A stretch of 64,000 bases of DNA from Candidatus Doudnabacteria bacterium (lineage in GTDB: Bacteria > Patescibacteriota > Doudnabacteria > UBA920): contig CAWINB010000004.1 in NCBI GenBank assembly GCA_963837465.1, positions 330,853 through 394,852 of the forward strand. The letters are read 5' to 3'. Shown here in pieces: positions 19,122-36,690 of this stretch. The stretch's first letter is position 1. Each line of letters opens with the position of its first letter. The notes below the pieces were generated by a model. It was given only the letters and a program-made list of their open reading frames with translations. It was not told the origin of the DNA and made no database searches. Position numbers and translations under genes: made by a program.

Positions 19122-19169
19122 AAAAATTTATTGAATAAATAGCTCAATTTCGCTATAATTAGAATAATT

Positions 19170-19365
19170 GAATAGGTGCCTAACCCCATGGCTAAAACTA
19201 TGGGTATGGTAGAAGTAAAGAATCCTCAGCTACGTAAAGACGGTCTCTTAACCGCTCTCGTAGCTGAGGTGCGTGCGAAAGCATGCGGTGGTGTCGAAAG
19301 GCACTGCTGCGGTTGGGAGGCCCTTTTTGTATCCAACCGCAATTTAAAAACCTCAGCTACAACAA
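19170..19365 (+). promoter_or_regulatory. highly structured leader upstream of the Type III mod gene
   Basis: Series of hairpins: cccatgg...ctatggg; an 11-bp stem cctcagctacg...cgtagctgagg; GNRA-type loops gcgaaagc and tcgaaagg; gcggttgg...ccaaccgc. A second cctcagctac copy abuts the start codon. The 65-aa ORF here is probably spurious. Confidence 0.3.
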
Positions 19366-21255
19366 ATGAATAACAAATCACTGATTTTTGAATTGCCCAA
19401 AATTGTGGAAGAGGGCAAAAAAGAAGTTGAAAAAATATTGGAACGGCTTTCCAGTCAAAGTCGGTTAGGTTTGCAGACTAATGAGCTGGTTCTACCGGCA
19501 AAAGATAGTGGCGGGCTTTTTCGCGGGCATATAGCAGAACAGAAAAACAATGAGTGGCTGAATCGCTTAATATATGGCGATAATTTGTTAGCTATGCAGG
19601 CTTTGCTTTCCGGCGATGAGCAGAGCGGTCTTGCCAGTATGCGTGGGAAAATAGATTTAATTTACATTGATCCACCGTTTGATAGCAAAGCTGACTACCG
19701 CACAAAGGTTACCTTGCCTGGCGTGGATTTGGAGCAAAAGCCAACAGTTATAGAACAATTTGCATACGCCGATACTTGGAAAGATGGCACCGTAAGCTAT
19801 TTGAAAATGCTTTATCCTCGTCTTGCTTTAATGCGCGAGTTGCTCTCCGAACAAGGCAGTATTTATGTGCATATTGATTGGCACGTCGGGCATTATGTAA
19901 AAATTTTACTTGATGATATTTTTGGAAAAAATAATTTTAGGAACGAAATAATTTGGTGGTATCTTTGGGGAGGAAGAGGTAAGACACAATGGAATAGCAA
20001 ACATGATAATATTTTATTTTATTCCAAGGATAATAATTGGATTTTTAACTTTAAGGATGTATTAGATGATCACAATTTAATGACAGAAGGGTCAAAAAAT
20101 AGGTTGAATTACAAAGGTGCGATGGTAACTACCAAAAGCGAATCCTCAGAAATACCCGAAGATAAAGTGCTGCCTTCTGATACTTGGTATATAGCAACCA
20201 TTAATGCAATGGCAAAAGAAAAATTAAATTATGGTACTCAAAAACCAGAATCTTTGGTAGAAAAAATAATCAAAGCATCTTCAAATGAAAATTCCATTGT
20301 AGCAGATTTTTTTGCGGGGAGCGGGACAACTGGAGCGGTGGCGGAAAAACTTGGACGGAGGTGGATTATGTCGGATATTGGCAAGCCAGCGGCTTTGATA
20401 ATGCGCAAACGGTTAATTGACCAAAACGCCAAACCGTTTTTGTATCAATCCATCGGCGACTACCAAAAAGAAGCGTTTACCTCCTCAAAGTTATACCGCC
20501 GGGTTGGCGACCTGGCCCAGGTGGTATTGCAACTTTACGGCGCAATCCCTTTTACAGAAGACCAAAGCCAAATGCGAAATTTGGGGTATATAAAAGACAG
20601 TAAAACTTTGGTAATGGTGGATTCGCCGAATAAAATGACCGGCCTTGCCACGCTTAAAAAAGCGCAGGAGCTTAAAGCCAGTTTTATGGGCGGATTTAAC
20701 AAAGTGGTGGTCTTGGGCTGGAATTTTACTTTTGATATTACCGAAGCTATTCATTCGCTTAACGATAAAAGCGTGGAAGTTTTAGTTATACCCCCGGATC
20801 TGTTAGATAAGTTAAAGAGCAAAGCTGATTACAAAGACTTGATTGACAGCGGTAAAATTCGTTTTTCCTCTTTGCAATATCTGACTTTAAAACCAATTAC
20901 GGTAAAAATATTGCCGGATGATAAAGAACAGTTGCATGTTGAATTAGATAATTATGTTTTACTTTCCCCAGACAACATACCTTTGGACGAAAAGGACAAG
21001 GAAAAATTAAAAGAAGTCATTGCTAAAGATCCATTGTCTTTGGTTGAATATTGGAGCATTGATCCCGATTATGACGGAGTTACTTTTCGCAGCCTATGGC
21101 AGGATTATCGGGAAAATGAAGACAATGACGCAGAGCCTTACCATGTTGTAAAATCGGTAGATTTGACTGTCCCCAAAAAGAAAGAAAAAAGAATTGTATG
21201 CGTAAAGGTCGTGGATGTTTTTGGTTTTGAAAGTATTGCGACCGAGGAAGTTTAA
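19366..21255 (+). CDS. mod: Type III restriction-modification methyltransferase (Mod), beta-class N6A/N4C MTase
   Basis: 629 aa. [12 protein letters not shown] (motif IV, DPPF) precedes [23 protein letters not shown] (motif I, FxGxG); central variable TRD. Confidence 0.85.
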
Positions 21256-21258
21256 CAT

Positions 21259-24171: not shown

Positions 24172-24192
24172 CATTATGGATTGTAAAAATTT

Positions 24193-24369
24193 ATGTCACA
24201 TGAAGATTTAGACATTGACGAGTTCAAAAGAATTTTTGGAAAGTATTATGACAAGCCGCTTTCCGACCAAGATGCATATGAAGGCGCTTATGATTTGCTT
24301 AACGCTTTTAAATGGTTAGTAGATCAGGACGAAAGCAACAATCTAAAAATTCAGCCAAAAACTAGATGA
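24193..24369 (+). CDS. small hypothetical protein, paralog family member 1 (58 aa)
   Basis: MSHEDLDIDEFKRIFGKYYDKPLSDQDAYEGAYDLLNAFKWL... Not in the ORF track (<60 aa). Related to the next two small ORFs. Confidence 0.35.
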   Translation: MSHEDLDIDEFKRIFGKYYDKPLSDQDAYEGAYDLLNAFKWLVDQDESNNLKIQPKTR

Positions 24370-24533
24370 TTTCTCAAGAAGCGTTAGAAAAATATAAGGC
24401 TATTTACAAGGAAGAGTATGGTGCGGATATTTCAGACGCAGAAGCCTTGGATTTGGCCGTCAATCTTTTAACAATGATGAACGCAGTATATCGGCCGATA
24501 AAAAAAGAATGGGCTGAAGATGCTGACCTTTGA
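24366..24533 (+). CDS. small hypothetical protein, paralog family member 2 (55 aa)
   Basis: MISQEALEKYKAIYKEEYGADISDAEALDLAVNLLTMMNAVYRPIKKEW. ATGA overlap with the preceding gene. Confidence 0.4.
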   Translation: MISQEALEKYKAIYKEEYGADISDAEALDLAVNLLTMMNAVYRPIKKEWAEDADL

Positions 24534-24560
24534 ATTTAACAATCAAATTTAGATAAATTT

Positions 24561-24698
24561 ATGAAGGTATTTATTAGGTTAGTGTTAGGCTTAGTGGCAT
24601 TATTGTTTATAACTTTTATGTCGGCTGCTTTTGGGATAGGCGGGTTTTTGTTCACGCTCGGTTTGTTTGCGGTTATAGTTTATGCTTTTGCTAGGTAG
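24561..24698 (+). CDS. small two-TM membrane peptide (45 aa)
   Basis: MKVFIRLVLGLVALLFITFMSAAFGIGGFLFTLGLFAVIVYAFAR. Confidence 0.3.
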   Translation: MKVFIRLVLGLVALLFITFMSAAFGIGGFLFTLGLFAVIVYAFAR

Positions 24699-24707
24699 CT
24701 ATTTTTT

Positions 24708-24893
24708 ATGATTTCAAAAGAGCATCTTGAAAAATATAAACAGATTTATAAAAACCGTTTTGGGAAAGAATTATCTAACCAAGAGGCTCTTGAGCAGGCC
24801 ACTAAGTTGCTTAGGTTAATAGAAATTATTTACCATCCCATGACCCAGGAAGAGCTGGATATGGTTAATAGGCGGAGACAGGAATTGGGTTAA
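24708..24893 (+). CDS. small hypothetical protein, paralog family member 3 (61 aa)
   Basis: MISKEHLEKYKQIYKNRFGKELSNQEALEQATKLLRLIEIIYHPMTQEE, clearly homologous to the protein at 24366-24533. Confidence 0.45.
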   Translation: MISKEHLEKYKQIYKNRFGKELSNQEALEQATKLLRLIEIIYHPMTQEELDMVNRRRQELG

Positions 24894-24899
24894 AAAGCT

Positions 24900-26114
24900 T
24901 TGACTAAAGTTTGCCATCACAAAGCTTGGAATTTTGCTATAATTAAGAGGCACAAAGCCTCTTTTAATTTAACCCCCTCTATGAACTATATCGAAGATTG
25001 GAAATTATATCTTTGGAAAAAACTGTTGCTGAAATCTGATTATTTCAGCCAGCAAAACCTTAACCTATTTCAGGCTATCCGTAATTTTGTATTTGGCCAG
25101 GACTGGGGCGGAACTGTAGGCAACGATTTGATAGCACAAGCATTAATTGAAATGAGCAATTTTCAGCCGCCCGCTGTTGAGATTACCAACGTTAGGATGT
25201 TAAAAGATTACCGAGATTACCATTACAAGAGATTGTCTGAAGAAGAAGCAAAAAAGGCGCTCGCGGCTGCCACAAGCTCAAGCTATACAAATCCAAATTC
25301 CAAAACCGTCCACGTTGTTTTGCAGCCCAACCACGGATTGCCTAAAGAAGTAGACCAGAAGCTGGAGAAACTTGAGAAGGACAAAAATCTGGCTGACTTA
25401 GATTTGGCGGACTTAAAAACGATGGCCTATAATGCCAAGCTCCCTCAATACTTATGGAATTACGTTAGCTTTGATGCGAAATTCCACAAAGAGCCTTTAG
25501 AAAAAAAGCTAAACGATTACATCGACTCTTTTATCCAAGGGGATTTGGTAGCGCCAAGGGGTTTTAGACTTTACGGCCCAAGACAGCAGATGGAGAGAAT
25601 GTGGCAAACTATACAGGTATTAGCGACTGGTCAGGGCTCGAAAAACCTCAAAGTTACTTTGCGGGACATTGTGCCGCCGGGACGTAGCCCAGTAAATGAG
25701 CATAATCTCTATAAATTTTATGAAATGATACTGGCTTTGGAGCGCAGTGGCGACATCACAGTTACTGATATAGTCGGCTCCGAGGCAGTTATTTCCATAG
25801 CCCCAAGGCATTTAAAAAATCTCGACCCGGACTTAAGGATACCCCCTGCTTTTGCTAAATTTGAAGGCAAGTTTGTCGAACATGAACTTCATTGGTATTG
25901 CCCTATATGCGGCAACAAGATTAAAGTCTTTGAGGACAAAGACACGCTGGCGGAAACCCTTACTATCCGCACCAAACGCTGTAAAAACGGCCACGAAAAC
26001 AAAATAATGATTATCGATGATAAGCTGTATTTGGAAAATACGCCCATTGCCGTTTCAGAAGCAATGGCACACTTTAAGCGCAGGAATAAAGTCCAAAAAC
26101 CAGATGGCGTTTGA
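24900..26114 (+). CDS. hypothetical protein with C-terminal zinc-ribbon (CPICGN...CKNGHEN)
   Basis: 404 aa, no recognisable catalytic motif; true start may be the internal MNYIEDWK. Confidence 0.5.
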   Translation: MTKVCHHKAWNFAIIKRHKASFNLTPSMNYIEDWKLYLWKKLLLKSDYFSQQNLNLFQAIRNFVFGQDWGGTVGNDLIAQALIEMSNFQPPAVEITNVRMLKDYRDYHYKRLSEEEAKKALAAATSSSYTNPNSKTVHVVLQPNHGLPKEVDQKLEKLEKDKNLADLDLADLKTMAYNAKLPQYLWNYVSFDAKFHKEPLEKKLNDYIDSFIQGDLVAPRGFRLYGPRQQMERMWQTIQVLATGQGSKNLKVTLRDIVPPGRSPVNEHNLYKFYEMILALERSGDITVTDIVGSEAVISIAPRHLKNLDPDLRIPPAFAKFEGKFVEHELHWYCPICGNKIKVFEDKDTLAETLTIRTKRCKNGHENKIMIIDDKLYLENTPIAVSEAMAHFKRRNKVQKPDGV

Positions 26115-26139
26115 CAGTAAGTTATTTTGGGTGTAAAAT

Positions 26140-26405
26140 GTAAGCAGTTAATCTTTTACAATTTAATTGTTTCGCCTTATCGGTCTTGCCAGGCGGCGAG
26201 AGGTAAGGAAGGAATGATTATCCAAAACTTTTTAGACGGTTATACCCAAAGCTATTTGGCTCTGCCAGGAGGCGGAGGAGTAAGCGAGTAAGTATAACGC
26301 CATTAAGCCAAGATAATAGAAAAATCGGACCGTTGATTCGGCCTGGTCTTCTTGTTATTTTGGCTTTTTTCGTTTGACCAGCGCTTTTAACGGCGCTGGT
26401 TTTTG
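26140..26405 (+). ncRNA. candidate small RNA or leader ending in a rho-independent terminator
   Basis: Gene-free 270 nt with direct repeats gccaggCggcgAgagGtaag / gccaggAggcgGaggAgtaag. Terminates at accagcgc-loop-gcgctggt followed by TTTTT (26377-26405). Confidence 0.25.
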
Positions 26406-26424
26406 CGTTTTACGCAAGAAAATG

Positions 26425-26502
26425 GGGCAATTAGGTTGCTGCCTTGGGATCTGGTTTGCTCATAGAGGGGTTATCCTGAAACCGGGCAGCACCCTAATTG
26501 CC
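26425..26502 (+). promoter_or_regulatory. long imperfect hairpin immediately 5' of the Rep-like gene (candidate origin or operator)
   Basis: gggcaattagg...cctaattgcc outer stem (10-11 bp) with inner stem tgctgcc...ggcagca. Confidence 0.3.
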
Positions 26503-26524
26503 TCTAAATAATCAAAATCCCTCT

Positions 26525-27703
26525 ATGATGATTGACAGTATACGTCTAAGAATTTCTATATTTAGTAGCGTGAAAAATAACTTCTTTTTTAGAGAAAAAA
26601 GAGGGAGCCTTGATTATGATAATAGTAATAGACAGAGGGTTAAACAATTTATACGAACCAATTTTAAGTGGAGCGAACAACAACGGTCTCAGGGTAAATA
26701 TATCCCAAAATATTGGACAGAAACCAACAGCTTTGAGGGCGGTAAACAGTATCTTATTTTTGAATTTTCAGTTCCAAAGTTCTTGCAGGGACATAATTTA
26801 GTCGAAATTGCAGAAACCATGCTGCCTGTCTTGGTGGATCGTCTCGAGGACTTCTGTAAAATAATTCAACTATCAGTTGCGGAGGTAGATATTTTGGGTG
26901 CGCAAGTCACGATGGTCGCATATTGTCATAATGTTCCGATAGCCCATCTGGCTCCTTCGCAAGAAGTTATGAAATTGTTATCTGGATATACCTATCGTTT
27001 TCGTTCTAAATTTCGGCCCGAGCAAAATGAATTGGGACAGATTACTCATTTACAACTCGGTAATAATACTTCCCATGTTACTGCTTATGATAAGTTGCCG
27101 GAGATTATAGTGCATGCCCGAACTACTGAGGAATTGGAAATTGCCAAAATAATTAAAAATAAACAGTTGCCAAATCCTTACGGAAAAATTATTCAAGACA
27201 CCATTAGGTTTGAGCTCACTTTACATAATACTGTGTCGGTAAGGCAAGCAATGAAAAAATTTTATGGTGACAAGCCTTTTTACACACTCAAGGATGTGTT
27301 CAAAGCCGATATTGCGGCGGCATTATTAAAGTTGGAAATGGAGGAAATTTATAATCACCCCCTTAAAAATATAGCTGCAAATTCTAATTATGACTTCCGA
27401 AAACTAAATGATGAGGTCGGTAAATTTATTCGAGACCGCCATCAGGACGGCAAACTGATTGGCTTGCTGGAACAGGCCACCCTTGTTCTACACGCCGGGG
27501 GCTGGGCGGCGGTCAGAACTTATTTAGCGAAAGGTTGTTGCCGCCGGACTTTGCAATACCGGATAGCTGAACTACGCGAAATAGAAAAAATTGGAATTAA
27601 TTTGGGAACGCCAAATGAAAAAATTATGGAATATATTTTAAACCAATTTGGCATTGGAAAAACTAATTTACTTCCTAAAGGCCAACAATTATTGTTTAGC
27701 TAA
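26525..27703 (+). CDS. candidate replication-initiation protein (Rep_trans/phage-CRI-like; low-confidence assignment)
   Basis: ~393 aa from MMIDSIRLRI... The N-terminal IDSIRLRIS resembles the conserved start of rolling-circle initiator families. The track start at 26498 is a TTG inside the hairpin. Confidence 0.4.
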   Translation: MMIDSIRLRISIFSSVKNNFFFREKRGSLDYDNSNRQRVKQFIRTNFKWSEQQRSQGKYIPKYWTETNSFEGGKQYLIFEFSVPKFLQGHNLVEIAETMLPVLVDRLEDFCKIIQLSVAEVDILGAQVTMVAYCHNVPIAHLAPSQEVMKLLSGYTYRFRSKFRPEQNELGQITHLQLGNNTSHVTAYDKLPEIIVHARTTEELEIAKIIKNKQLPNPYGKIIQDTIRFELTLHNTVSVRQAMKKFYGDKPFYTLKDVFKADIAAALLKLEMEEIYNHPLKNIAANSNYDFRKLNDEVGKFIRDRHQDGKLIGLLEQATLVLHAGGWAAVRTYLAKGCCRRTLQYRIAELREIEKIGINLGTPNEKIMEYILNQFGIGKTNLLPKGQQLLFS

Positions 27704-27789
27704 TTTATATGCAACTGCCATGTTTATCTATAGCCAACAAAAACCATACAGTCTATGCGTCTTTTGTCTCCCTAAGTATTACGTCAATA

Positions 27790-27870
27790 CACGTGCAATC
27801 TTTTGCACATTTTCACAGAGAATAATTGTGCAAGTTATAAAGCGCAGCTTAGGCAATATATGTGCAATCG
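27790..27870 (+). promoter_or_regulatory. TGTGCAA(T) repeat cluster upstream of B-type recombinase 1
   Basis: gtgcaat at 27793, inverted ttgcac at 27804, tgtgcaa at 27828, tgtgcaat at 27861. Confidence 0.35.
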
Positions 27871-27916
27871 CAAAAAGCCAAAATGTTACAAATCAATGAC
27901 TGAATAAAGTTGTCTC

Positions 27917-28885
27917 ATGAGCCAGTTTAACCAAAACCCAGATCCTAATTTTATACAGCAGCCATCTGCTCCGGTTTTAGGTTTGCCGGTCGTAAATACC
28001 CCACAGCTTTTGACCTTTGAACAGTTGATCCCGTTGTTTGGCGATTACGTCACTTACGATTTGAATCATAGTCCTAAGACATCCAAAAAGTATGTCGAGG
28101 GGTTAAGGCATATTTTGAAAGACCTACCCTTTATAGTTTACCCCCAAGACTTAACGTTGCCGCATATTACGGAACTGAAGAAAAAAGTGCAGTTGCGTGG
28201 CGCAAAAGAGTCCCGAGTTAATAGTCTACTATTCTCATTGCGAAAATTTTTAACCTATTGTAACGAAGTCTATAAACTGGTTACAATAAATCCAAAGGAA
28301 ATTAAAGTTATGCGATTACCAAAAAGGGAAGTGGTGTTTTTGGCTCCTGCCGAAATTGAGCAATTTTTAAGCGCAATGGATACAACAACTTTGCCGGGAT
28401 TACGAATACGGACGCTTGTAGAGGTGCTACTTTCCACTGCTATGCGAATTTCCGAAGCCCTGTCGGTCAGCCGTGGGGACATTGACTGGGAGGGCAAGGA
28501 AATTGTCATTATAGGGAAAGGCAATAAGCAGCGGACGGTATTTTTAAGCGATAGGGCAATCGGTTGGCTTCAAACCTATTTACTCCGGCGTAAGGATAAT
28601 GACCCTGCTTTGTTCGTAACCTTTGGCGAACCCAAACGCTTGTCGCCTTATGACTTGTCTAAGCAGTTTAAGCACTATGCTGAAAAAGCAGGATTAAAGA
28701 AAAAAGTAACACCCCATATTTTACGCCATACGGCCGCGACAACCATGTCCCATAACGGCGCGGACATTCGTAACATTCAGCTAATTTTAGGCCATAGCGA
28801 CATTAAAACAACCGCCAAATATTACTTAGGCGTGGACAAAGAGGCTTTAAAGGAAGCCCATAAAAAGTTTCTAAAATACGATTAG
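27917..28885 (+). CDS. tyrosine recombinase, B-type paralog 1
   Basis: 322 aa: ...IIGKGNKQRTVFL...FVTFG...HILRHTAATTM...TTAKYYLG. Distinct subfamily from the A-type copies. Confidence 0.9.
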   Translation: MSQFNQNPDPNFIQQPSAPVLGLPVVNTPQLLTFEQLIPLFGDYVTYDLNHSPKTSKKYVEGLRHILKDLPFIVYPQDLTLPHITELKKKVQLRGAKESRVNSLLFSLRKFLTYCNEVYKLVTINPKEIKVMRLPKREVVFLAPAEIEQFLSAMDTTTLPGLRIRTLVEVLLSTAMRISEALSVSRGDIDWEGKEIVIIGKGNKQRTVFLSDRAIGWLQTYLLRRKDNDPALFVTFGEPKRLSPYDLSKQFKHYAEKAGLKKKVTPHILRHTAATTMSHNGADIRNIQLILGHSDIKTTAKYYLGVDKEALKEAHKKFLKYD

Positions 28886-28962
28886 GCAGGCAAACTACCT
28901 ATGGATTGAGTGGTTTCTAAGATAGTTTACCCCTTATTTTATAGGGTTTTTATGATTTTGGC

Positions 28963-28991
28963 TTGACAGAAGCCATAAAATCAGGTATAAT
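28963..28991 (+). promoter_or_regulatory. consensus sigma70-type promoter upstream of the DGR target gene
   Basis: TTGACA-N17-TATAAT exactly. Confidence 0.55.
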
Positions 28992-29128
28992 TAAAAGTTA
29001 ATTTTGAGACTGGAAATTGAGCTATCAAAGTTTATTTAATGGCTGAATTGCCTGTCCCAACTGTTGGGATTTGGTGTGCCGTGGCTTTCACGGATGCAGT
29101 TAATGTTCCTATAAATCAATAAGGAGGG

Positions 29129-29806
29129 ATGACGCCAATGGAAACCCCGTTGACCGTATCCACTAACAATCCCCGAGAAGGCAAACAGGGCCGGAAGTTG
29201 TATTACCGGCTCAAAACCTCAATTAAGAAATCCGGATTATTAATTGTAGCGCTTCAACCCGCGCTTGAGTTCCCCGGCACAGCGATGGAAGACGACATCG
29301 CGGCTATCTTGGTAAAGTATTCCAAGATGGCTCGTGGCATCGTTACTCCCGTCCGCGCCGAGGACACCGGCCTCATGCCCCAGGGCTATTCGGTATACCT
29401 CACGCCGCAGGGCGTTCGCAAGGATCGTCTGGAAGGCGACGTCGAGCTGGCTAATGTCGACTACATCTGCCCGTTGCGGGATGATGATGGCGACTATATC
29501 GGCGGCGAGGTAATGCTCCAGCGGTCGGTCGAACTCAAGGCCATCGGTAGCCTCGGCTACGCTTTCGCGCTTCTCAAGGCGCAGGAGCAAGGGAAGGAAA
29601 TCTTTCCTGTCGAGTCGCGCGGCAAGCATTATTTCATTATGCCGCTCACCGAGCTGCTCGGTGACGACCGTGGCCGCCGCGTGGCTTGCTTCGGCTGGCA
29701 CGGCAAGTCGCTGCGTTGGGTGCTCTTCTTCCGTTGGGTCGGCGGCGTCTTCGCTCGCCGCGGTCGGTTTGTTGTTCCCCGCGAGAAGAAGCCCTCGGTC
29801 GCTTAG
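29129..29806 (+). CDS. DGR variable (target) protein with C-terminal CLec/FGE-type variable region
   Basis: 225 aa (possibly starting at internal MEDD, 29285). The C-terminus ...DDRGRRVACFGWHGKSLRWVLFFRWVGGVFARRGRFVVPR is the VR counterpart of the Asn-rich TR-encoded ...DDNRNRNVAYFNWNDKSQRWVLNFNWVDNNFNRNDRFVVPR. The gene is markedly GC-rich. Confidence 0.8.
   Translation: MTPMETPLTVSTNNPREGKQGRKLYYRLKTSIKKSGLLIVALQPALEFPGTAMEDDIAAILVKYSKMARGIVTPVRAEDTGLMPQGYSVYLTPQGVRKDRLEGDVELANVDYICPLRDDDGDYIGGEVMLQRSVELKAIGSLGYAFALLKAQEQGKEIFPVESRGKHYFIMPLTELLGDDRGRRVACFGWHGKSLRWVLFFRWVGGVFARRGRFVVPREKKPSVA
29654..29782 (+). repeat. DGR variable repeat (VR)
   Basis: 129 nt aligned gap-free to the TR with 26 mismatches, every one at a position where the TR has A. 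Confidence 0.85.
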
Positions 29807-29875
29807 TCCCTCGGCTCTGCCGCTGGGTTCTGGACTCTTGGCGCTTCGCATTGCCCCGCATTTTGACTTCGGTCA
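29783..29875 (+). promoter_or_regulatory. GC-rich hairpin downstream of the VR (candidate DGR target-recognition stem-loop)
   Basis: ccccgcat-tttgacttcggtcagg-atgcgggg at ~29853-29885; region continues GC-rich after the VR. Confidence 0.35.
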
Positions 29876-30147
29876 GGATGCGGGGTGTTTTTTTGTCCAA
29901 AATTTTGAAAGTTTGGTATAATTTAAGTAGATGGGATTTATGCCTGCGGTTAAGGCTTCAGGTGACCACATCTCGCATTGTTAAAAAACCAGAGTATCGG
30001 CGGCTACGGTTTCCGGTAGAGTGTTTTTTAACAAATCTTAAAAAGAAGATACTCGGTGCAAAGTATTGGCGGGCTTTAAGGCCCCAAATAAAATACAACC
30101 CCAAGAGTATTCAAGGGGTGGTGGCTTGGAATATACTTTGCATAATC

Positions 30148-30276
30148 CTGCTCGATGACAACCGTAACCGCAACGTGGCTTACTTCAACTGGAACGACAA
30201 GTCGCAGCGTTGGGTGCTCAACTTCAATTGGGTCGACAACAACTTCAATCGCAACGATCGGTTTGTTGTTCCCCGC
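30148..30276 (+). repeat. DGR template repeat (TR)
   Basis: A-rich, AAC-codon-rich 129-nt copy of the VR. Followed by hairpin ctcctccc-acaac-gggaggag. Confidence 0.85.
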
Positions 30277-30644
30277 TATTGTCTTCTTACTCCTCCCACA
30301 ACGGGAGGAGTTTCTTTTAATAACTGCCGCTGCCAGCCGCCAAACATTTTACCCGCGTCAACCAGAGGTGTTGAAATATCACTAAATTGTTTATTGTCTA
30401 AGGCTTTTAACTCCCAAGCCAATTGTAGGAAGTATTTAAGGGTATCAAGTTTAATGCTTGCCTTTTGAATTAAGATTGACTTGCTATCCCTTGAGGTAAA
30501 GCCCGCTGTCAGCGTTAGTTCAATAACATCGGTGAACAGGACATTGATTTTTTCAGCCAAGGAGTATTTTACCAGCTTGGGCAGGTGTGGCAGGTAGTTG
30601 TGCCAGAGTTTGTAAGCATCGGTAATTTTTTGTAATACCGGCAA
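30276..30644 (-). CDS. avd: Avd-like four-helix-bundle accessory protein of the DGR (opposite strand to the RT)
   Basis: 122 aa, basic. ...LQLAWELK...GKMFGGWQRQL resembles the conserved Avd/TIGR02436 C-terminus (...GKMLGGW...). Confidence 0.55.
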   Translation of the reverse strand: MPVLQKITDAYKLWHNYLPHLPKLVKYSLAEKINVLFTDVIELTLTAGFTSRDSKSILIQKASIKLDTLKYFLQLAWELKALDNKQFSDISTPLVDAGKMFGGWQRQLLKETPPVVGGVRRQ

Positions 30645-30662
30645 GTTGATAAAATTTCCGTT

Positions 30663-30673
30663 GGGGGGGGGGG
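30663..30673. repeat. homopolymeric G11 tract between the divergent avd and RT starts
   Basis: ttGGGGGGGGGGGttg, 1 bp upstream of the RT start codon (30674). Confidence 0.9.
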
Positions 30674-31717
30674 TTGTTAAAAGTCATTTTTATAAGTTTA
30701 ATTATGAAAACGCAATTAAAAATAAGTTACGAGGAAATCATTTCACTCGAAAATTTGTTTGCCGCCTGGCAGGAGTTTTTGCCGGGCAAGAGAAAAAAGA
30801 AAGACGTGCAGGAATTTGGCCTTAGGCTTGCTGATAACATTTTACAGCTTCAGGAGGAACTTGCCAATTTTAGCTATATCCACGGCCCATACAAGGCCTT
30901 TAACATTTCTGACCCCAAGCCGAGGAATATCCATAAGGCAAGCGTTCGGGACAGAGTTTTACATCACGCCATTTACCGCAAACTATATCCGTTTTTCGAC
31001 AAAACTTTTATCGGCAGTTCGTATTCCTGCCGTTTGGACAAAGGAGTTCACAAGGCTTTGAATAAGTTTAGGGCATTGGCGTTTAAAGCAAGTAAAAATC
31101 ATACGCAAACAGCTTGGGTGCTCAAGTGTGATATTAAAAAGTTTTTCGCCAGCATTGACCATGCAAAACTGCTGAAAATTTTATCAGCTTACGTTCCCGA
31201 TAAAAATATTCTTTGGGTTTTAGAGCGAATTATTTATAGCTTTGATTATAAGGTAGCAGGCCGCGGCCTCCCGCTTGGCAACCTGACCTCCCAATTATTT
31301 TGCAACGTATATATGAACGAATTTGACCAATTCATAAAACACAAACTCAAGGCCAAATATTATATCCGTTATGCTGATGATTTTGTTTTTTTATCGGGTA
31401 GCAAGGACGAGCTAATATCCTTAGTTCCTAAAGTAGCCGAGTTTTTAGGAGAGGACTTAAAACTGTCTTTGCATCCGGATAAAGTTTTTATAAAGACCTT
31501 GGCCTCGGGCGTGGACTTCCTGGGCTGGGTGCATTTCCCTCATTACCGGGTTCTAAGAAAAAATACCGGCAGAAGAATGTTCAAACGAATTTACGGCCAT
31601 CCAACAAATGAAACATTCCAGTCATATTTAGGGTTAATGAGCCACGGAAATACTTACGGGCTTAAACAAAAATTGTTGAATTGGTATGGGTTACTTAAAA
31701 CAGCACAGCAGGAATAG
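30674..31717 (+). CDS. DGR-type reverse transcriptase
   Basis: 347 aa. RT domains 1-7 with YADD (YIRYADDFVFL) and the DGR-specific LGNLTSQLFCNVY (I/LGxxxSQ) motif. Confidence 0.9.
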   Translation: MLKVIFISLIMKTQLKISYEEIISLENLFAAWQEFLPGKRKKKDVQEFGLRLADNILQLQEELANFSYIHGPYKAFNISDPKPRNIHKASVRDRVLHHAIYRKLYPFFDKTFIGSSYSCRLDKGVHKALNKFRALAFKASKNHTQTAWVLKCDIKKFFASIDHAKLLKILSAYVPDKNILWVLERIIYSFDYKVAGRGLPLGNLTSQLFCNVYMNEFDQFIKHKLKAKYYIRYADDFVFLSGSKDELISLVPKVAEFLGEDLKLSLHPDKVFIKTLASGVDFLGWVHFPHYRVLRKNTGRRMFKRIYGHPTNETFQSYLGLMSHGNTYGLKQKLLNWYGLLKTAQQE

Positions 31718-31786
31718 AAAAGGCCACGTTGCTGGAACGTGGCCCCCGTCTTAATGTGACGACGGATTGAGTGGCTGCTTGCGGGA

Positions 31787-32353
31787 TTACCGACTGACGT
31801 AGGCGAACTGGCCTTCCTGCACCGGCTTGCGTTCGGTAGCGCCGACCAGCGAAGCGACAGTCATGCGCATACCCACCGGCAGATTTTGGAGGAGTGTGGC
31901 ATGGCCGCCTTTGAAGCGGATTGCATCGCGGTAGTTGTTGACCCGCTCGCTGAGCTGATCGAACGTCGCTTCCTGCGGTTTTCCATTGCCTTTGTTGAGA
32001 TTCAACTTGGCTCCGGGTGGAACGCAGATGGCGCAGACAACGGGCGGGTTATTGCTGGTGACAGCTTGTTTGATTTTAGCCACCACACCCGTTTCATTAC
32101 GAACCGACTGCCACGCCTGAAAGGCGTTTAAGTCAGCTACGGAGGCCAGACCGATTGTGCCTGTGCCGAAGCGGTGAGTAACGAGTTCCTCACCCTCTTG
32201 AGCCAGACGGTTATTGACTCCCATCAAGGAGTAGTCGCACATAGGGTTAAACCCTCTTTCCAATTGGATTTTCAAGGTCATGACAGCACCATGAATTATC
32301 CAAATCATAAACGAACAGAGAGAGAGAGAGTCAATAGAGGATTTTTTATGCAA
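31787..32353 (-). CDS. hypothetical protein (GC-rich, probably horizontally acquired)
   Basis: 188 aa (likely start at MTLKIQ...). No recognised domain; local GC content clearly above the window background. Confidence 0.4.
   Translation of the reverse strand: MHKKSSIDSLSLCSFMIWIIHGAVMTLKIQLERGFNPMCDYSLMGVNNRLAQEGEELVTHRFGTGTIGLASVADLNAFQAWQSVRNETGVVAKIKQAVTSNNPPVVCAICVPPGAKLNLNKGNGKPQEATFDQLSERVNNYRDAIRFKGGHATLLQNLPVGMRMTVASLVGATERKPVQEGQFAYVSR
32317..32330. repeat. (AG)7 dinucleotide microsatellite
   Basis: agagagagagagag immediately upstream of the minus-strand gene start. Confidence 0.9.
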
Positions 32354-32549
32354 GGTCGCTAAAAAAATTGATTTTTGCTAAAATATAGTAAACACTACGG
32401 GTCGATTTATAAAAAATTTATGCCGGACTATAATCACCTGCTTGTAACAACCCAAGCTAAAAGCAAAAGGCCAAAATGGTGGTGGATAGTAATTGTTATT
32501 TTTGCAGTTTTGATAGTAATTGTGCTATTAAAAAAATAATTTTATAACT

Positions 32550-33200
32550 ATGGAAACTGAAACCCGTTCTACCCCCCCCCATACCTCTTCCGAGAACCCA
32601 GACACTTGGGTCAAAGACACCACCCAAGCTATGAGGAAGCCTGGCGGCAGGGACTTGGCCGACTACAAGGAATTTTTAGGATTTACCGAAAATGAGCTTG
32701 CAGGCAAGACAATTTTAGATTTGGGTTCGGGTTCAAAAGAAAAATTATCACGCCAGCTAAAGGAAGCCGGCGTTGTTGCTAATGTAGTTAGTCTGAACCC
32801 GGATTATACCATTCCTAAGTATAGGCGCATTATAAACAACGAGGAAGACTGGCAGAAAAAATCCGTAGCCGCCTTAGCCCAAAGCCTGCCTTTTAAGGAT
32901 GGCAGCTTTGACAGTGTTTTATCTTTGGAAGCCATAACGATGTATGAGGATGCTTTTGAAAAACCGGACAGTGCCAAAAAATGGGCGGCAGAAATAGCAA
33001 GGGTCTTAAAACCCGGCGGCGAAGCAAGGCTGGGAGAAATTTTGGGTTTCAAAGGTGAACTAAAGCAACAGGCTTGGCAGGAGCTGGTTAGGCTTTTTGC
33101 GGATTTAGGCGTAGAGGCAAGAATTGAGCAATTTAAAATCAGGGAAACAAACCCGATGCCGAGATTTAGGTTGGTTCTGAAAAAATCTTTAATCCAATAA
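32550..33200 (+). CDS. class I SAM-dependent methyltransferase with a C9 tract in codons 8-10
   Basis: ILDLGSGS (motif I) ... VLKPGGEARLG. Homopolymer C9 at 32572-32580 encodes TPP near the annotated N-terminus; an alternative start is MRKPGG at ~32625. Confidence 0.65.
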   Translation: METETRSTPPHTSSENPDTWVKDTTQAMRKPGGRDLADYKEFLGFTENELAGKTILDLGSGSKEKLSRQLKEAGVVANVVSLNPDYTIPKYRRIINNEEDWQKKSVAALAQSLPFKDGSFDSVLSLEAITMYEDAFEKPDSAKKWAAEIARVLKPGGEARLGEILGFKGELKQQAWQELVRLFADLGVEARIEQFKIRETNPMPRFRLVLKKSLIQ

Positions 33201-33222
33201 TTAACCATTAACCTTTTTATTT

Positions 33223-33657
33223 ATGACAGAAATCAAAAGAAATTTTGAGGATGAACCCACTCGCCAAGAGCGTGATCCTCAACATTTAGAAGTAAAGCGT
33301 TTGTTTGAATCCTTAGCAGCCCAACACGGCACTGGGATTATGCTTAAGTATATTGAAAGTGTTACCGATGTTGCTCCCAAAGTGGCGTCCGAATGGTTTG
33401 AAGGTCATCGTCATCCCAGCTCAGGTATTCGCAAGGCTATCCTTAACTGCTTGCGGAATTTTAAGCATGAAGATTTACCCAAGCAACCGGAACATATAAA
33501 AGCTCCGCTGGCTACCAGTCAGCCAAAAGAAAATAAACAAATTCCAACAAGACAGCCAAGGCCGCAGGAGCAGAAAAAACAGGAAACCATTGCAAAAAAT
33601 GAAGCTGAGCTTAAAGCCATAATGGATAGGGCAAGGGAAAAGGGGCAAATAACTTAG
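33223..33657 (+). CDS. hypothetical protein
   Basis: 144 aa with a charged, low-complexity C-terminal half. Confidence 0.4.
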   Translation: MTEIKRNFEDEPTRQERDPQHLEVKRLFESLAAQHGTGIMLKYIESVTDVAPKVASEWFEGHRHPSSGIRKAILNCLRNFKHEDLPKQPEHIKAPLATSQPKENKQIPTRQPRPQEQKKQETIAKNEAELKAIMDRAREKGQIT

Positions 33658-33725
33658 TTTTTTATAGATTTATTGGTCTTTATATAGGACTTGACAATGT
33701 GGTGTTTACCATATACAATTGAAGT

Positions 33726-34040
33726 ATGGATTTCATATTAAACAATTTTGAGGGTTTTGAGTGGGATGAGGGGAACGAACAAAAGAGCTTTTTGAAACAT
33801 GGCATTACGCCATTGGAAGCGGAAGAAGCATTTTTTAACCCCAATTTTATATCAGCTGATCCTGTCCATAGCCAGAGCGAAAAGCGTTACCGCTTATTGG
33901 GCAGAACTAACAGTAGTAAAGTTTTAATAATAGCTTTTACAATAAGAAGTAACAAAGCGAGAGTTATCTCTTCGCGATTAGCCAATAAAAAAGAAAGGAC
34001 ATTATATGACCAAGCAGTTAAAGCCAATTCCCAAATTTAA
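33726..34040 (+). CDS. brnT: BrnT (DUF497) ribonuclease toxin
   Basis: FEWDEGNEQKSFLKHGITPLEAEEAFFNP...RYRLLGRT...VLIIAFTIRSNKARVISSRLANKKERTLY matches the BrnT consensus. Confidence 0.8.
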   Translation: MDFILNNFEGFEWDEGNEQKSFLKHGITPLEAEEAFFNPNFISADPVHSQSEKRYRLLGRTNSSKVLIIAFTIRSNKARVISSRLANKKERTLYDQAVKANSQI

Positions 34041-34272
34041 GACTGAAGCCGAAGAAGCCAAGTTTTGGAATAGCCACGACTCTACCCAGTATATTGACTG
34101 GTTAAAAGCCCCGCGTGGCGTTTTTCCTAACCTAAAACCATCTTCTCAATCTGTTTCACTTCGCATTCCAGCCAACATATTAGCTCGCATTAAAGTGCAA
34201 GCCAATCAGTTAGACGTGCCTTATCAATCTTTGATGAAGCAGTATATTGCTAACGGTGTAATGAAGAATTAA
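34006..34272 (+). CDS. brnA: BrnA antitoxin
   Basis: EAEEAKFWNSHDSTQYIDW...VSLRIPANILARIKVQANQLDVPYQSLMKQYI; overlaps the brnT 3' end. Confidence 0.8.
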   Translation: MTKQLKPIPKFKTEAEEAKFWNSHDSTQYIDWLKAPRGVFPNLKPSSQSVSLRIPANILARIKVQANQLDVPYQSLMKQYIANGVMKN

Positions 34273-34277
34273 ATGCA

Positions 34278-34487
34278 ATGGGCAGTATAAGACATATTGA
34301 CGCAGGTCATCCGGATGAGTGGTATAAGGACAGGTTTATGGTCACATTTACCGAGGAAGGTATAATGGATCTGAGGTACCAAGATTGGGTTGGCGGCAGG
34401 ATGGAAGTGTATGTTGTGGGAGAGCAGTATGCAATAGATGAAATTCGGTTTTTTTACCCCAAACACATTAGAATGGATAAACTTTAG
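34278..34487 (+). CDS. small hypothetical protein
   Basis: 69 aa ORF only. Confidence 0.25.
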   Translation: MGSIRHIDAGHPDEWYKDRFMVTFTEEGIMDLRYQDWVGGRMEVYVVGEQYAIDEIRFFYPKHIRMDKL

Positions 34488-34587
34488 GGAGCAATATGAT
34501 GGCAAGTGGTTAGATAAAACTGCATTTGAAGACGTAGTGGAAACGGTAAAGAAAAGGTTTTACACCAAACCAGAAAGCAGAATTTAA

Positions 34588-34675
34588 CAATTAAATTGAT
34601 CTTTTAAATTTTTAATACAGTAGTAGTTTGTCAGGCAATTTCCGTTTACAACGGCTCAGAAACACCTCCTTTCTA
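34588..34675 (+). repeat. right-arm repeat X copy 1 with the 16S-end core (CACCTCCTTTCT at 34664-34675)
   Basis: aattgatcttttaaatttttaatacagtagtagtttgtcaggcaatttccgtttacaacggctcagaaacacctcc is near-identical to 51785-51865. Confidence 0.8.
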
Positions 34676-34942
34676 AGGAATAAATATGCAGCCTTAAACT
34701 TTTCGAAGTTTATGTTGTTGCACATTCCAGTGGTCGTCATCTTCTATTTCGATAGAAGGTGCACATACTCTAACGATTGAACGTAAACGAACGGTTTTGT
34801 AAAAGGTAATTCTACCCTTATTTTCGCAAGATTATAAGGAGTCTCAACGCCTTAAATGTTGGGAGTCACTATTTAGCCGTTAAGGGAACTTAACGAAATT
34901 GCAAATAAAAGCCTCGTCATCAGCAATGATAACGAGGTTTTT
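34676..34942 (+). repeat. element-arm repeat copy 2 (upstream of integrase A2)
   Basis: Same conserved blocks as 17873-18137. Hairpin variant ccttattttcgcaagattataagg. Confidence 0.65.
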
Positions 34943-35929
34943 ATGTATGAGGTTAATTCGGTAGAAAGAGTCGCAAAAGGTGGAATTGCGGCGACAGTCA
35001 GCCCCGCCGCTCCTATCGGCACAAAGATTAGCACTTTGGTGCCGCAATTCTTGGCTTATGGCCAGTATGACCTGTCCTTTGCCGCAGGCACCATAGAGAA
35101 ATACCGCGATAGCCTAAACGTCTTTATGCGGGACGTTGGGGATTTGCCCGTAGAGGAATTAAACTTTGGGCATTTTACTTTGCTGAAACAAAAAATTATG
35201 GAAAGGGGGTCGGGGGTCTCACGCATAGCGGGCGTGGTCTTTGCGATGAAAAGTATGTTAAAGTTTGCTACCGACGTATTGGAGATGCAGATTTTGGATT
35301 ATAAGAAAATCAGAGCGCCGAAGCGGCGCAGGCGGGACGTAGTTTATTTAACCAATGCCGAAATCCAGCAGTTCGTTGACAGCATAAAGTTTGAAAAATG
35401 CTGGACGGGCAATACCCGTAAAAAGGGCATCAGCGTCCACCGCCTGAGGTTTCGGACTTTGGTTGAAGTCTTGCTTGGCACGGGGATGCGTATAAGCGAA
35501 GCATTGTCGCTTACAAGGGATGTTATAAACTTTGAAAAAGGCGAGGCTAAGATAATCGGCAAAGGAAGCAAGGAGCGCACAGTGTTTTTTAACGAACGGG
35601 CTTTGTATTGGATTAAGTTTTATTTGGAACAGAGAAACGACGACAATCCCGTTATATTTTTAAACCGAAAAGGCAAGCCGCTGGACAGGGGCGATGCCGA
35701 TACTTTGTTTAAGCGTTACGCAGAAAGGTCAGGTATAACTAAAAAATTAACGCCGCACATTTTGCGGCACACGATGGCGACGAATCTGCTTTTTAACGGA
35801 TGCCCGATTGGCCATATTAAGGAAATCCTCGGACACGACCGATTAGAGACAACTTGTCGTTATTATTTGGGCTTAGACAAAGATAAAGCTAAAGAAGCCC
35901 ACGGCCAATTTTTAAATTACGAACAATAA
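34943..35929 (+). CDS. tyrosine recombinase/integrase, A-type paralog 2
   Basis: 328 aa: LRFRTLVEVLLGTGMRISEALSL...KIIGKGSKERTVFFNE...HILRHTMATNLLFNGCPI...TTCRYYLG. Confidence 0.9.
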   Translation: MYEVNSVERVAKGGIAATVSPAAPIGTKISTLVPQFLAYGQYDLSFAAGTIEKYRDSLNVFMRDVGDLPVEELNFGHFTLLKQKIMERGSGVSRIAGVVFAMKSMLKFATDVLEMQILDYKKIRAPKRRRRDVVYLTNAEIQQFVDSIKFEKCWTGNTRKKGISVHRLRFRTLVEVLLGTGMRISEALSLTRDVINFEKGEAKIIGKGSKERTVFFNERALYWIKFYLEQRNDDNPVIFLNRKGKPLDRGDADTLFKRYAERSGITKKLTPHILRHTMATNLLFNGCPIGHIKEILGHDRLETTCRYYLGLDKDKAKEAHGQFLNYEQ

Positions 35930-35934
35930 GGCCT

Positions 35935-36690
35935 CTAAACAAGCTGGTGATAAATCGTCGCTGTAATTGTTCCAGCATCAAGCATAACAATAATCTGCTC
36001 GCAAGCATTTTTGAAATCGCCGAAGAAGTCTTCTGCAACTAAAATTAAGTTACCTTTTTGGTCAGAAGATAGATTTTGTTTATTATAGATGCGCTCGGAG
36101 AGAATGATTGTCTGATGTGGCAGAGTATAGTGATTAACACCACACCTGAGTTCTTTATAAAGCCTGTCCTTGTAAGGCTGGTATGATGGCGGAAAGAGTT
36201 TGTCTATGGCATTTTTAAATCTGTTGCCGCTTTCCCTGTCCACAAAAAAAGAATTGCTGGTATCAAGGAATGTTCCCAATAATTCTACCCCAGCCATCAT
36301 CAAACTCCAAGAATAAAACGGGTGCTTCTGAACAATATCTTGGGTTTGGCTTATTAAGTCCTGCAATATTTGTTTTTGAGACATTGCATTCGCAGGCGCT
36401 GGTATGGAGCCTATGGAAAAGCTCTGCGTGCCAGCTGTAGAATGGGCGAGCGCAAAACCTACGGTGGTTCCAGAAGAAGATAGACCAGCCGCTACTGTTG
36501 TTCCGCTAAAACCGCCTATTGGCTGATTTAAAGCAGGTGCTGGTTTATTGGATGTTTGAGTTTCGGGTTCTGTTAAAAATTTGTTTTTTAGTTTGAAATA
36601 AAGAACTATAAGCAGAGCCGCTACCAAAATTGCAAAAACTGTCCATCCAAAAATTAGCACTATAAATTTTATCAGACCCCAGATAATCAT
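35935..36690 (-). CDS. hypothetical membrane-anchored protein
   Basis: 251 aa with an N-terminal TM helix, a Ser/Thr/Gly-rich linker, and a globular C-terminus. Confidence 0.5.
   Translation of the reverse strand: MIIWGLIKFIVLIFGWTVFAILVAALLIVLYFKLKNKFLTEPETQTSNKPAPALNQPIGGFSGTTVAAGLSSSGTTVGFALAHSTAGTQSFSIGSIPAPANAMSQKQILQDLISQTQDIVQKHPFYSWSLMMAGVELLGTFLDTSNSFFVDRESGNRFKNAIDKLFPPSYQPYKDRLYKELRCGVNHYTLPHQTIILSERIYNKQNLSSDQKGNLILVAEDFFGDFKNACEQIIVMLDAGTITATIYHQLV

Follow-up and report, generated by a model that had tools for sequence, protein, structure and literature searches.

The locus described here raises two questions: whether it is an intact diversity-generating retroelement (DGR), as the initial annotation proposed, and how an RNA carrying its TR might be primed where an inverted gene separates TR from the reverse transcriptase (RT). 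It lies in a 64-kb stretch of DNA, referred to below as the window, and is almost certainly an intact DGR. Considered as a whole, it is very probably best explained as an intact DGR of CPR-typical B3 layout on a Patescibacteria chromosome, for which we infer the RNA mechanism. DGRs are already known as common in ultra-small (Patescibacteria/CPR) bacteria, and this locus is another example of the established B3 class. Its presence in a CPR bacterium was to be expected, as hundreds have been catalogued there and an inverted avd is the norm. Work by Paul et al. in 2017 is reportedly among the accounts of CPR/Patescibacteria DGRs.

Repeat pair, enzymes and gene order

The genes, repeats and their flanking signals are as follows, in window coordinates:

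28963-28991, + strand: target promoter, consensus sigma-70 TTGACA-17-TATAAT
29129-29806, + strand: target (variable-protein) gene, 225 aa
29654-29782, + strand: VR, in gapless alignment to TR
29764-29782, + strand: A-free, IMH-like block, the last 19 nt of VR, identical in VR and TR
29852-29887, + strand: predicted target-gene terminator, intrinsic type, 16-bp stem then T7, kept in related loci
30148-30276, + strand: TR, in gapless alignment to VR
30276-30644, − strand: avd (accessory variability determinant), 122 aa, PF22296, on the opposite strand to TR and RT
30663-30673, unstranded: poly-G tract G11, with G10-G12 at the same place in L001, L003, L005, L008, L168 and L173
30704-31717, + strand: DGR reverse transcriptase, 337 aa from ATG 30704, in an ORF open from TTG 30674

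VR and TR align over 129 nt without gaps, and each of the 26 mismatches is an A in TR. VR has G (17 cases), C (5) or T (4) opposite the substituted adenines, while 5 of the 31 TR adenines are unchanged and the 98 non-A positions show no difference. With mismatches placed at random, 26 of 26 on adenines would have a probability of 1.4e-22. The adenine-only pattern reported initially thus survived recounting, with 0/98 mismatches at non-A positions. The TR adenines fall at codon positions 1 (12) and 2 (19), with none at position 3. AAC makes up 9 of the 43 TR codons, in agreement with the AAC-rich frame noted earlier, which translates as LLDDNRNRNVAYFNWNDKSQRWVLNFNWVDNNFNRNDRFVVPR. VR encodes residues 176-218 of the 225-aa target protein and so occupies its C-terminus, as first described. 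No second VR was found in the 64-kb window.

The RT ORF (30674-31717) matches RVT_1 with an E-value of 1.9e-26, and ATG 30704 seems a more likely start than TTG 30674. Its best PDB match is the Bordetella phage bRT (8ub7; E 4.1e-43), which aligns over residues 10-327, effectively full length. The LGNLTSQ and YADD motifs singled out by the initial annotation are both present in the translation and both align to bRT, LGNLTSQLFCNVY with IGSLTSQLFANVY and YADD with YMDD, leaving the catalytic residues intact. The Avd protein, which contains the GKMFGGW motif, exceeds the gathering cut-off of Pfam bAvd (PF22296; 44.8 bits against 40), scores 64 bits against NCBIfam DivGenRetAVD (NF033474), below the cut-off of 80, and matches the PHROG ‘Avd protein of DGR’. 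Among its 87 homologues, all those with a named source are from Patescibacteria; a search against PDB sequences gave no match. These profile scores uphold the earlier assignment of both RT and the Avd-like protein, which had left the minus strand of avd unstated. The avd and RT genes diverge from a 59-nt gap that contains the conserved G-tract.

Substitution is limited to adenines, RT belongs to the DGR clade, an Avd is encoded, VR sits at the C-terminal end of an ORF, and the 3′ homology block is free of A. Since every testable sequence hallmark of a DGR is found, the DGR interpretation is supported, and the completeness claimed initially holds; five related Patescibacteria loci have the same cassette, gene order and A-only pattern. 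The order is target(VR)-TR-(avd)-RT, with TR and RT on the plus strand and avd on the minus strand. Architecture B3 is given as TR-(avd)-RT, and as 90% of the CPR set, in the available part of Wu et al. 2018 (NAR 46:11, PMC5758913), and its core with avd reversed is the arrangement listed above. Because avd is inverted, the label ‘textbook’ fits the substitution pattern and not the layout.

Promoter and terminator motifs suggest four transcription units: the target mRNA, a stand-alone DGR RNA, avd and RT. The first runs from consensus promoter to terminator. The perfect promoter noted initially is at 28963-28991 (12/12 matches), 138 nt 5′ of the target ATG, giving a 5′ UTR of approximately 130 nt; a consensus promoter also lies 100-140 nt 5′ of the target in L001 and L002. 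GC-rich hairpins had been described 3′ of both VR and TR. They are indeed present (29852-29887 and 30289-30311), with the refinement that each has a T-run after it and is scored as an intrinsic terminator. The first begins 70 nt past VR, compared with approximately 4 nt for the Bordetella-type element. From their sequence, both look like terminators rather than a Bordetella-type target-recognition cruciform.

The target protein begins with a region of three helices, and its C-terminal domain, of alpha/beta type, bears VR. Its family has approximately 63 members and no recognisable domain; these variable proteins are small and apparently cytoplasmic, and the structure model is confident. The closest homologue, P0002, is 85% identical, with differences also outside VR. 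The initial remark that the TR frame resembles ‘CLec/FGE-type’ targets is weakly supported: C-type-lectin-fold DGR variable proteins available for comparison include Mtd, TvpA (2y3c) and archaeal AvpA, and Foldseek of the target model against the PDB gave no significant match. The target gene is GC-rich at synonymous sites.

The DGR RNA and its structured leader

The second unit is predicted to be an RNA of approximately 390 nt (29930 to ~30320) made up of a ~220-nt leader, TR and a terminator hairpin, expressed from an extended −10 promoter. Its elements are:

29893-29922, + strand: DGR RNA promoter, extended −10 (TGGTATAAT), with TGnTAnAAT at the same position in 11 related loci
29929-30147, + strand: conserved structured leader, from covariation and single-sequence folding
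29929-33 / 29969-73, + strand: leader helix H0
29942-29963, + strand: leader helix H1
29978-89 / 30023-34, + strand: leader helix H3, which encloses H2
29995-30018, + strand: leader helix H2, with a UACG loop
30043-30051, + strand: putative primer strand AAGAAGAUA, inside the invariant GAAGAUACUCGGUGC block
30056-30066, + strand: 5′ strand of P4, an 11-bp long-range helix and candidate cPRT-Stop duplex
30071-30084, + strand: leader helix HA
30086-30095, + strand: A-rich stretch of the leader
30096-30121, + strand: leader helix HB
30133-30143, + strand: 3′ strand of P4, ending 4 nt before the TR start
30280-30288, + strand: primer-strand complement UGUCUUCUU, starting 4 nt after the TR end (3 nt between)
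30289-30319, + strand: predicted DGR RNA terminator, a 9-bp stem-loop (30289-30311) then a U-tract, with covarying hairpins in related loci

Six helices are backed by covariation across 10-15 loci, counted on MAFFT alignments with hand-named structures. Over the whole leader, 92% of cells are paired, against 42-49% in slid controls, and 31 of the 56 pairs show compensatory change; for the 3′ domain the figures are 95.9% and 16 of 21. P4 is paired in 97.6% of cells, with compensatory change in nine of its 11 pairs and ten sequence versions. When the 391-nt RNA was folded on its own, the MFE and the centroid structure each contained every helix, the long-range duplex included. Conservation of the leader, extended −10 and terminator extends to loci with 45-60% protein identity and with TRs that differ in the sequence they encode. 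Judged from these alignments, the leader is a structured RNA that is conserved, has the support of covariation and stays in physical linkage with TRs belonging to different types of target.

Further pairings were considered and rejected. RNAalifold paired GAGUGUUUUUU with AAAGAAGAUACUC, which competes with H3; we prefer H3 because 10 of its 12 pairs are compensatory. Pairing of the invariant GAUACUC with GAGUAUC in the 5′ domain, or with GAGUAU in the HB loop, is lost in divergent loci on reading the alignment. A metagenome scan with the invariant 15-mer GAAGATACTCGGTGC, a pattern too short for this purpose, recovered the leader in six of the 120 loci returned (L029, L034, L038, L073, L080 and L123), and none of 30 viral matches was real.

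The putative primer duplex between AAGAAGAUA and UGUCUUCUU is 91% paired, with its terminal A-U pair in 10/10 loci, although these pair counts lean towards the model because the register was chosen by a best-duplex search. Compensatory variants include AACGAAGA/UCUUCGUU, AAUGAAGA/UCUUCAUU and AUAGAAA/UUUCUAU. The strands are compositionally biased, being purine or pyrimidine runs, and per-locus shuffling gave p values of 0.002-0.14. In the most divergent loci, L171 and L173, the leader is pyrimidine-rich at the primer-strand site and the duplex is ambiguous; L010, an independent Saccharibacteria DGR, has a P4-like helix and no clear primer duplex.

A model for priming and its alternatives

In the phage RNA, the primer strand Sp53-56 ends in the priming nucleotide A56 and is followed, after 2 nt, by Sp59-70, which forms an 11-bp duplex with the segment just 5′ of TR and has a short stem-loop and then A-minor adenosines after it; the cDNA ends immediately ahead of this duplex (bioRxiv 10.1101/2023.10.23.563531). 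By analogy, RT-Avd would bind the DGR RNA, and the leader strand at 30043-30051 would pair with 30280-30288, just past TR. The invariant terminal A30051, which is followed by invariant CUCGG and is the priming nucleotide predicted here, would then prime cDNA synthesis in cis. RT would copy TR, misincorporating opposite adenines, and would halt at P4, which ends 4 nt before TR; beyond its 5′ strand, P4 resembles the phage cPRT Stop in having a short stem-loop and then adenosine-rich sequence. The cDNA would finally replace VR by homology, possibly anchored by the 19-nt A-free block. We lean slightly towards this model, in which priming would occur from the leader. We also considered whether homing is guided by the 3′ flank of VR (GAGAAGAAGCCCTCGGTCGC) acting as a mimic of the leader (AAGAAGAUACUCGGUGC), and rejected this: the GAAGAAG part is present only in the window and L001, and L171 and L173 keep a CTCGG-like flank though their leaders lack CUCGG.

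A less probable but serious alternative is that the DGR is genuine and the leader is not a primer/stop module. The leader might instead be a scaffold for protein binding, act in stability or processing, or regulate how TR is transcribed. In that case priming would come from RNA downstream of TR (antisense avd), as in phage, from the 3′-OH of a nicked RNA or from the target. The shortness and compositional bias of the primer duplex, and its lack of clarity in L171, L173 and L010, point this way, as does the preprint's statement that DGRs of several phyla, CPR included, fit an upstream/downstream pairing model (bioRxiv 10.1101/2023.10.23.563531). The 9-bp hairpin just past TR also fits the position described for an Avd-binding stem-loop, and 30289-30319 is a candidate for that role by analogy. 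However, this hairpin has a U-tract behind it in all the loci and therefore looks like a terminator, and the sequence downstream of TR is under constraint from the avd reading frame on the opposite strand, the terminator stem-loop overlapping the last 15 codons of avd. In addition, the strand upstream of TR pairs with the leader through P4, with strong covariation, and not with downstream sequence, and the leader elements, from primer strand through linker, stop strand and stem-loop to adenosines, follow the phage Sp order.

The two other readings bear on the element itself. Its relatives are often decayed: target homologues occur without avd or RT in L002, L007, L009 and L161, only a fragment of RT is left in L004, where TR is missing, and L038 and L080 retain the leader with an eroded TR. 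The present DGR could likewise be recently inactivated or decaying, its VR-TR differences historical and present diversification absent; we consider this unlikely, as all ORFs and motifs, both the promoters and terminators, and all RNA helices are intact, and, although 26 of 31 adenines are substituted, not one of the 98 non-A positions is mismatched, which suggests little drift after the most recent homing. According to the last reading the locus is no DGR at all: the RT would belong to a retron, to a fragment of a group II intron or to a defence system, and the repeat beside it would be coincidental. In its favour, RT has weaker matches to the reverse transcriptases of group II introns, retrons and DRTs. 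These are far below family cut-offs, however; bRT is by far the best structural relative, Avd is present and Rfam finds no intron or retron RNA. The A-only repeat, its P value (~1e-22) and the bRT match effectively refute this reading, to which we attach almost no probability.

Returning to priming from the leader, the primer strand, stop strand and stem-loops lie 5′ of TR and not 3′, so the RNA looks circularly permuted relative to the phage DGR RNA. We give an even chance to the broader proposal that this lineage, and possibly B3-type CPR DGRs generally, use as DGR RNA a stand-alone, non-coding molecule of ~390 nt, circularly permuted relative to that of the Bordetella phage, with the priming strand, 11-bp cPRT-Stop duplex and stem-loops 5′ of TR and a 3′ terminator or Avd-binding hairpin overlapping the inverted avd, and that the G10-12 tract may make the mutagenic machinery phase-variable in its expression. 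For the DGR architecture that is most abundant yet least studied, the locus offers an RNA model specific enough to test. Should the priming and stop elements truly be upstream of TR, the phage RNP mechanism would be conserved through a circularly permuted RNA; the permutation would explain how an inverted gene can separate TR from RT, and a minimal RNA for reconstituting or engineering CPR-type DGRs would be defined.

Relation to known DGRs and RT-associated RNAs

With the CPR B3 DGRs, as covered in the available part of Wu et al. 2018 (PMC5758913), the locus shares gene order, strand pattern, host group and Avd. In having no recognisable domain, its target is like their ‘UVR’ or ungrouped classes. 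That part of the survey describes no conserved leader RNA upstream of TR and no poly-G tract.

Structured RNAs beside RT genes, RT-16 (RF03019) and RT-7 (RF03028), have been reported with a speculated DGR or retron role (Weinberg et al. 2017, PMC5737381), with no mechanism or TR link assigned to them. The leader has a P4-like enclosing helix and a AUAAAAUACA...GGUG hairpin in common with RT-16, and a CCAGAGU...AGAGUG hairpin in common with RT-7, at scores well below Rfam gathering (31.5 against 50 bits and 24.9 against 116.8 bits, respectively). A search of the related loci with Rfam gave no RT-motif match.

The closest mechanistic comparison is with the Bordetella phage BPP-1 DGR (mtd-avd-TR-Sp-brt; PDB 8ub7). 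The RTs are homologous over their full length (E 4e-43), and both systems have Avd, adenine-specific mutagenesis and a C-terminal VR. In BPP-1 avd is co-directional, whereas here it is inverted and overlaps the 3′ hairpin of the RNA. The Rfam model RT-10, which represents the phage Sp, has no match in the locus at E-values up to 5, and the RNA is not of Bordetella type: a terminator and antisense avd lie downstream of TR, and the covarying partner of the TR-upstream strand is in the leader. A stem-loop lies just 3′ of TR in both RNAs, and their remaining elements correspond one to one in order: the primer strand, whose last nucleotide is A, is followed by a short linker, then by an 11-bp duplex next to the 5′ end of TR, and lastly by a short stem-loop with adenosines after it. 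In BPP-1 the RNA for priming, stopping and RT binding lies downstream of TR, whereas its apparent counterpart here lies upstream, separately promoted and terminated.

Composition of the cassette and its repeat pair

The initial annotation described a complete diversity-generating retroelement (DGR) at 29129-31717. The finding is real and its interpretation as a DGR is supported. The cassette comprises the following features:

28963-28991: target-gene promoter, a perfect TTGACA-17-TATAAT
29654-29782 (+): variable repeat (VR), from the repeat alignment
29852-29887: hairpin 3' of the VR, followed by a T-run
29893-29922: extended -10 promoter, between the target terminator and the TR (TGGTATAAT)
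30148-30276 (+): template repeat (TR), from the repeat alignment
30276-30644 (-): avd, accessory variability determinant (Pfam bAvd above the gathering score; PHROG 'Avd protein of DGR')
30289-30311: hairpin 3' of the TR, followed by a T-run
30674 (TTG) or 30704 (ATG) onwards (+): open reading frame of the reverse transcriptase (RT; RVT_1, E 1.9e-26)

The consensus promoter, Avd-like protein and hairpins after both repeats were all present as annotated, and the T-runs cause both hairpins to score as intrinsic terminators. On a re-read of 28800-32100, the VR and TR aligned without gaps over 129 nt with 26 mismatches, in agreement with the earlier count; the TR base is A in all 26, replaced in the VR by G (17), C (5) or T (4) (P = 1.4e-22, were positions random). 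All 98 non-adenine TR positions are identical in the VR, while five of the 31 adenines are unchanged, and the homology ends sharply at both edges. Codon positions 1 and 2 hold all TR adenines, and the frame is AAC-rich as described (9 of 43 codons). A search of both strands of the window, using non-A TR positions only, found no further VR.

A yCTCGG/yCTTGG motif lies at 29792-29802, 9-15 nt past the end of the homology, and at the same position in seven related loci (L001, L003, L005, L006, L008, L171 and L173). It is kept both where it is coding (…PSVA*) and where it falls past the stop codon, which suggests a role at the DNA or RNA level, possibly in target recognition.

The closest solved structure to the RT is the Bordetella phage DGR RT (PDB 8ub7; E 4.1e-43, residues 10-327). 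The catalytic YADD and DGR motif noted initially both align with their counterparts there (LGNLTSQLFCNVY opposite IGSLTSQLFANVY, YADD opposite YMDD), and no group II intron, retron or DRT model scores anywhere near its cut-off. Avd falls short of the NCBIfam cut-off; its final 15 codons overlap the post-TR hairpin on the opposite strand, and among its 87 homologues, those with a named source all come from Patescibacteria (CPR) lineages.

The 59-nt divergent gap between avd and the RT contains a G11 tract (30663-30673). A G10-12 tract is kept at this position in six relatives (L001, L003, L005, L008, L168 and L173), usually with CCGTT on its 5' side (L168 and L173 being the exceptions), although their Avd proteins are only ~50-85% identical. 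Possible roles are a phase-variation switch working by slipped-strand mispairing, or an element in the promoter or UTR of the mutagenic machinery. Directly 3' of the RT, a 188-aa ORF (31787-32353, -; 55-58% GC, GC3 0.61) has no Pfam, NCBIfam or PHROG match and no counterpart in related DGR loci.

Target family, relatives and genomic setting

The 225-aa target protein yielded no match in Pfam, NCBIfam or PHROG, and no Pfam domain was found in its 63 homologues (~200-230 aa). The family alignment has a conserved body (GKEIFPVESRGKHYFIMPLTE) and then a C-terminus made up of alternating near-invariant F/W/R positions and positions whose entropy exceeds 3 bits. AlphaFold2, run with this alignment, predicted three N-terminal helices and then an alpha/beta domain (pLDDT 90.8). 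The model is confident but has no significant Foldseek match in the PDB, so a CLec-like fold is plausible, not established.

A ~130-nt 5' UTR (28992-29128) separates the consensus promoter from a strong Shine-Dalgarno sequence; related loci likewise have a consensus promoter 100-140 nt 5' of the target, and it is possible that this UTR holds cis-regulatory structure. Outside the VR (29129-29650 here; L001-L010), GC content in the target gene is consistently high at 51-58%, with a GC3 of 0.56-0.75 in every locus. The GC3 of the RT is 0.38-0.61 and that of neighbouring genes 0.35-0.53, and this holds for all host genomes analysed. One possible cause is codon bias linked to expression from the consensus promoter.

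Target homologues were found in Patescibacteria MAGs (Doudnabacteria, Parcubacteria and Saccharibacteria). The order target(+), TR(+), avd(-), RT(+) is repeated in L001, L003, L005, L006 (whose contig stops within avd) and L008, with 17-20 VR/TR mismatches, all at adenines save one in L006; the more distant L168, L171 and L173 share the gene order with other targets. This order is the B3 layout, TR-(avd)-RT, of Wu et al. 2018 (PMC5758913), so the locus belongs to a known class, as an ordinary CPR B3 DGR. Its interest lies in the RNA model, with a leader upstream of the TR, and in a target family that has yet to be characterised.

Decayed relatives occur among L002/L163 (4480-4545), L004, L038, L080, L161 and L164-L167. 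They include targets without avd/RT, target genes that keep just ~60 nt from the leader's 5' end, leaders beside a TR that has eroded, Avd without an RT gene called nearby and, in L004, avd and an RT fragment without a TR. So many decayed loci suggest that the mutagenic module is often lost while the target gene stays. In the Saccharibacteria locus L010, which has a distant target homologue, a separate DGR-like VR/TR pair (11812-12353; 16 of 17 mismatches at A) is laid out as in the window (VR, terminator, extended -10, ~200-nt leader, TR, hairpin), and its leader has no sequence similarity to the window leader.

The window holds a bacterial 16S rRNA gene (16287-17870), and the cassette lies in an adjoining mobile/defence-rich region (18138-36000). 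Features of this region, and LOOT RNA copies in the window, are:

689-802 and 19177-19305: LOOT RNA (RF03000), two copies above the gathering threshold
18138-19121, 27917-28885 and 34943-35929: three tyrosine recombinases
19366-24171: type III R-M system
26498-27703: Phage_CRI-like replication protein
32550-33200: SAM methyltransferase
33726-34040: BrnT toxin

The second LOOT RNA is directly 3' of the integrase gene at 18138-19121. An integrase also lies 5' of the target at the locus of the homologue P0012, and the DGR may be carried on an integrative element.

A structured leader 5' of the TR

The ~220 nt past the extended -10 (29929-30147), here termed the leader, are better conserved than the proteins encoded on either side: their mean column identity is 84% in loci where the targets share 50-60% identity. 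Beside TRs encoding unrelated sequences (L123, L034, L073, L168, L171 and L173), the same leader recurs together with the promoter element and the post-TR terminator. Helices were named from the window sequence and scored on MAFFT alignments. Across the whole leader (13 sequences), 92% of cells were paired, versus 42-49% with partners slid, with compensatory change in 31 of 56 pairs; the 3' domain (15 sequences) was 95.9% paired, with 16 of 21 pairs compensatory and a covariation score of 0.66 versus 0.09-0.18. The strongest element, the 11-bp helix P4 (30056-66/30133-43), is seen in ten sequence versions and stops 4 nt short of the TR 5' end.

Comparing the 22 nt before P4 with the 22 nt before the terminal hairpin revealed a long-range duplex in ten loci in one common register: AAGAAGAUA/UGUCUUCUU in the window (30043-51/30280-88), AACGAAGA/UCUUCGUU in L123, AAUGAAGA/UCUUCAUU in L034 and L073, and AUAGAAA/UUUCUAU in L168. 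Overall it is 91% paired, with four compensatory pairs and a terminal A-U pair in 10/10 loci. Its register came out of the search itself and the composition of both strands is skewed, which makes it a less secure element than P4. All helices, the long-range duplex included, were nevertheless recovered when 29930-30320 was folded without constraints (MFE and centroid).

Comparison with known RNA motifs and the phage DGR RNA

No Rfam family matched the DGR locus at gathering thresholds. A permissive scan aligned the leader with RT-16 (31.5 bits, threshold 50; 30016-30150, ending at the TR start) and RT-7 (24.9 bits, threshold 116.8), and no RT-motif matches were found in related loci. Both come from the set of motifs RT-1 to RT-19, of which RT-10 was shown to be the phage spacer and others were speculated to act in DGRs (Weinberg et al. 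2017, PMC5737381). With sub-threshold scores and relatives lacking a match, the leader resembles these motifs but is outside both by Rfam's criterion.

In the Bordetella phage RNP, Sp53-56 of the spacer RNA pairs with the TR 3' end and the 2'-OH of A56 primes synthesis; two nucleotides on, Sp59-70 and the segment immediately 5' of the TR pair as a duplex of 11 bp, followed by a short stem-loop and A-minor adenosines. Synthesis of cDNA halts just before this duplex, and an Avd-binding stem-loop lies directly 3' of the TR (bioRxiv 10.1101/2023.10.23.563531). By analogy, the leader strand 30043-51, ending at the predicted priming nucleotide A30051, would be the primer strand and P4 the stop duplex. 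The chief alternative is a leader with a scaffolding or regulatory role only, priming taking place elsewhere. In its favour, pairing between upstream and downstream segments (40 nt 5' and 100 nt 3' of the TR) has been reported for DGRs of several phyla, CPR members included (bioRxiv 10.1101/2023.10.23.563531), and no clear primer duplex was seen in L171, L173 or L010.

For priming from the leader speaks the order of elements in the window, which follows that of the phage RNA: primer strand to the invariant A30051, CUCG, the 11-bp P4, a stem-loop (HA, 30071-30084) and AAAUAAAAUACAA, with a 9-bp stem-loop directly 3' of the TR. Unlike in the phage, the primer/stop block precedes the TR here, and the terminator forms the end of the RNA. 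As the phage order is kept with this block moved, we propose, leaning somewhat towards this reading, that the window RNA is a circular permutation of the phage DGR RNA.
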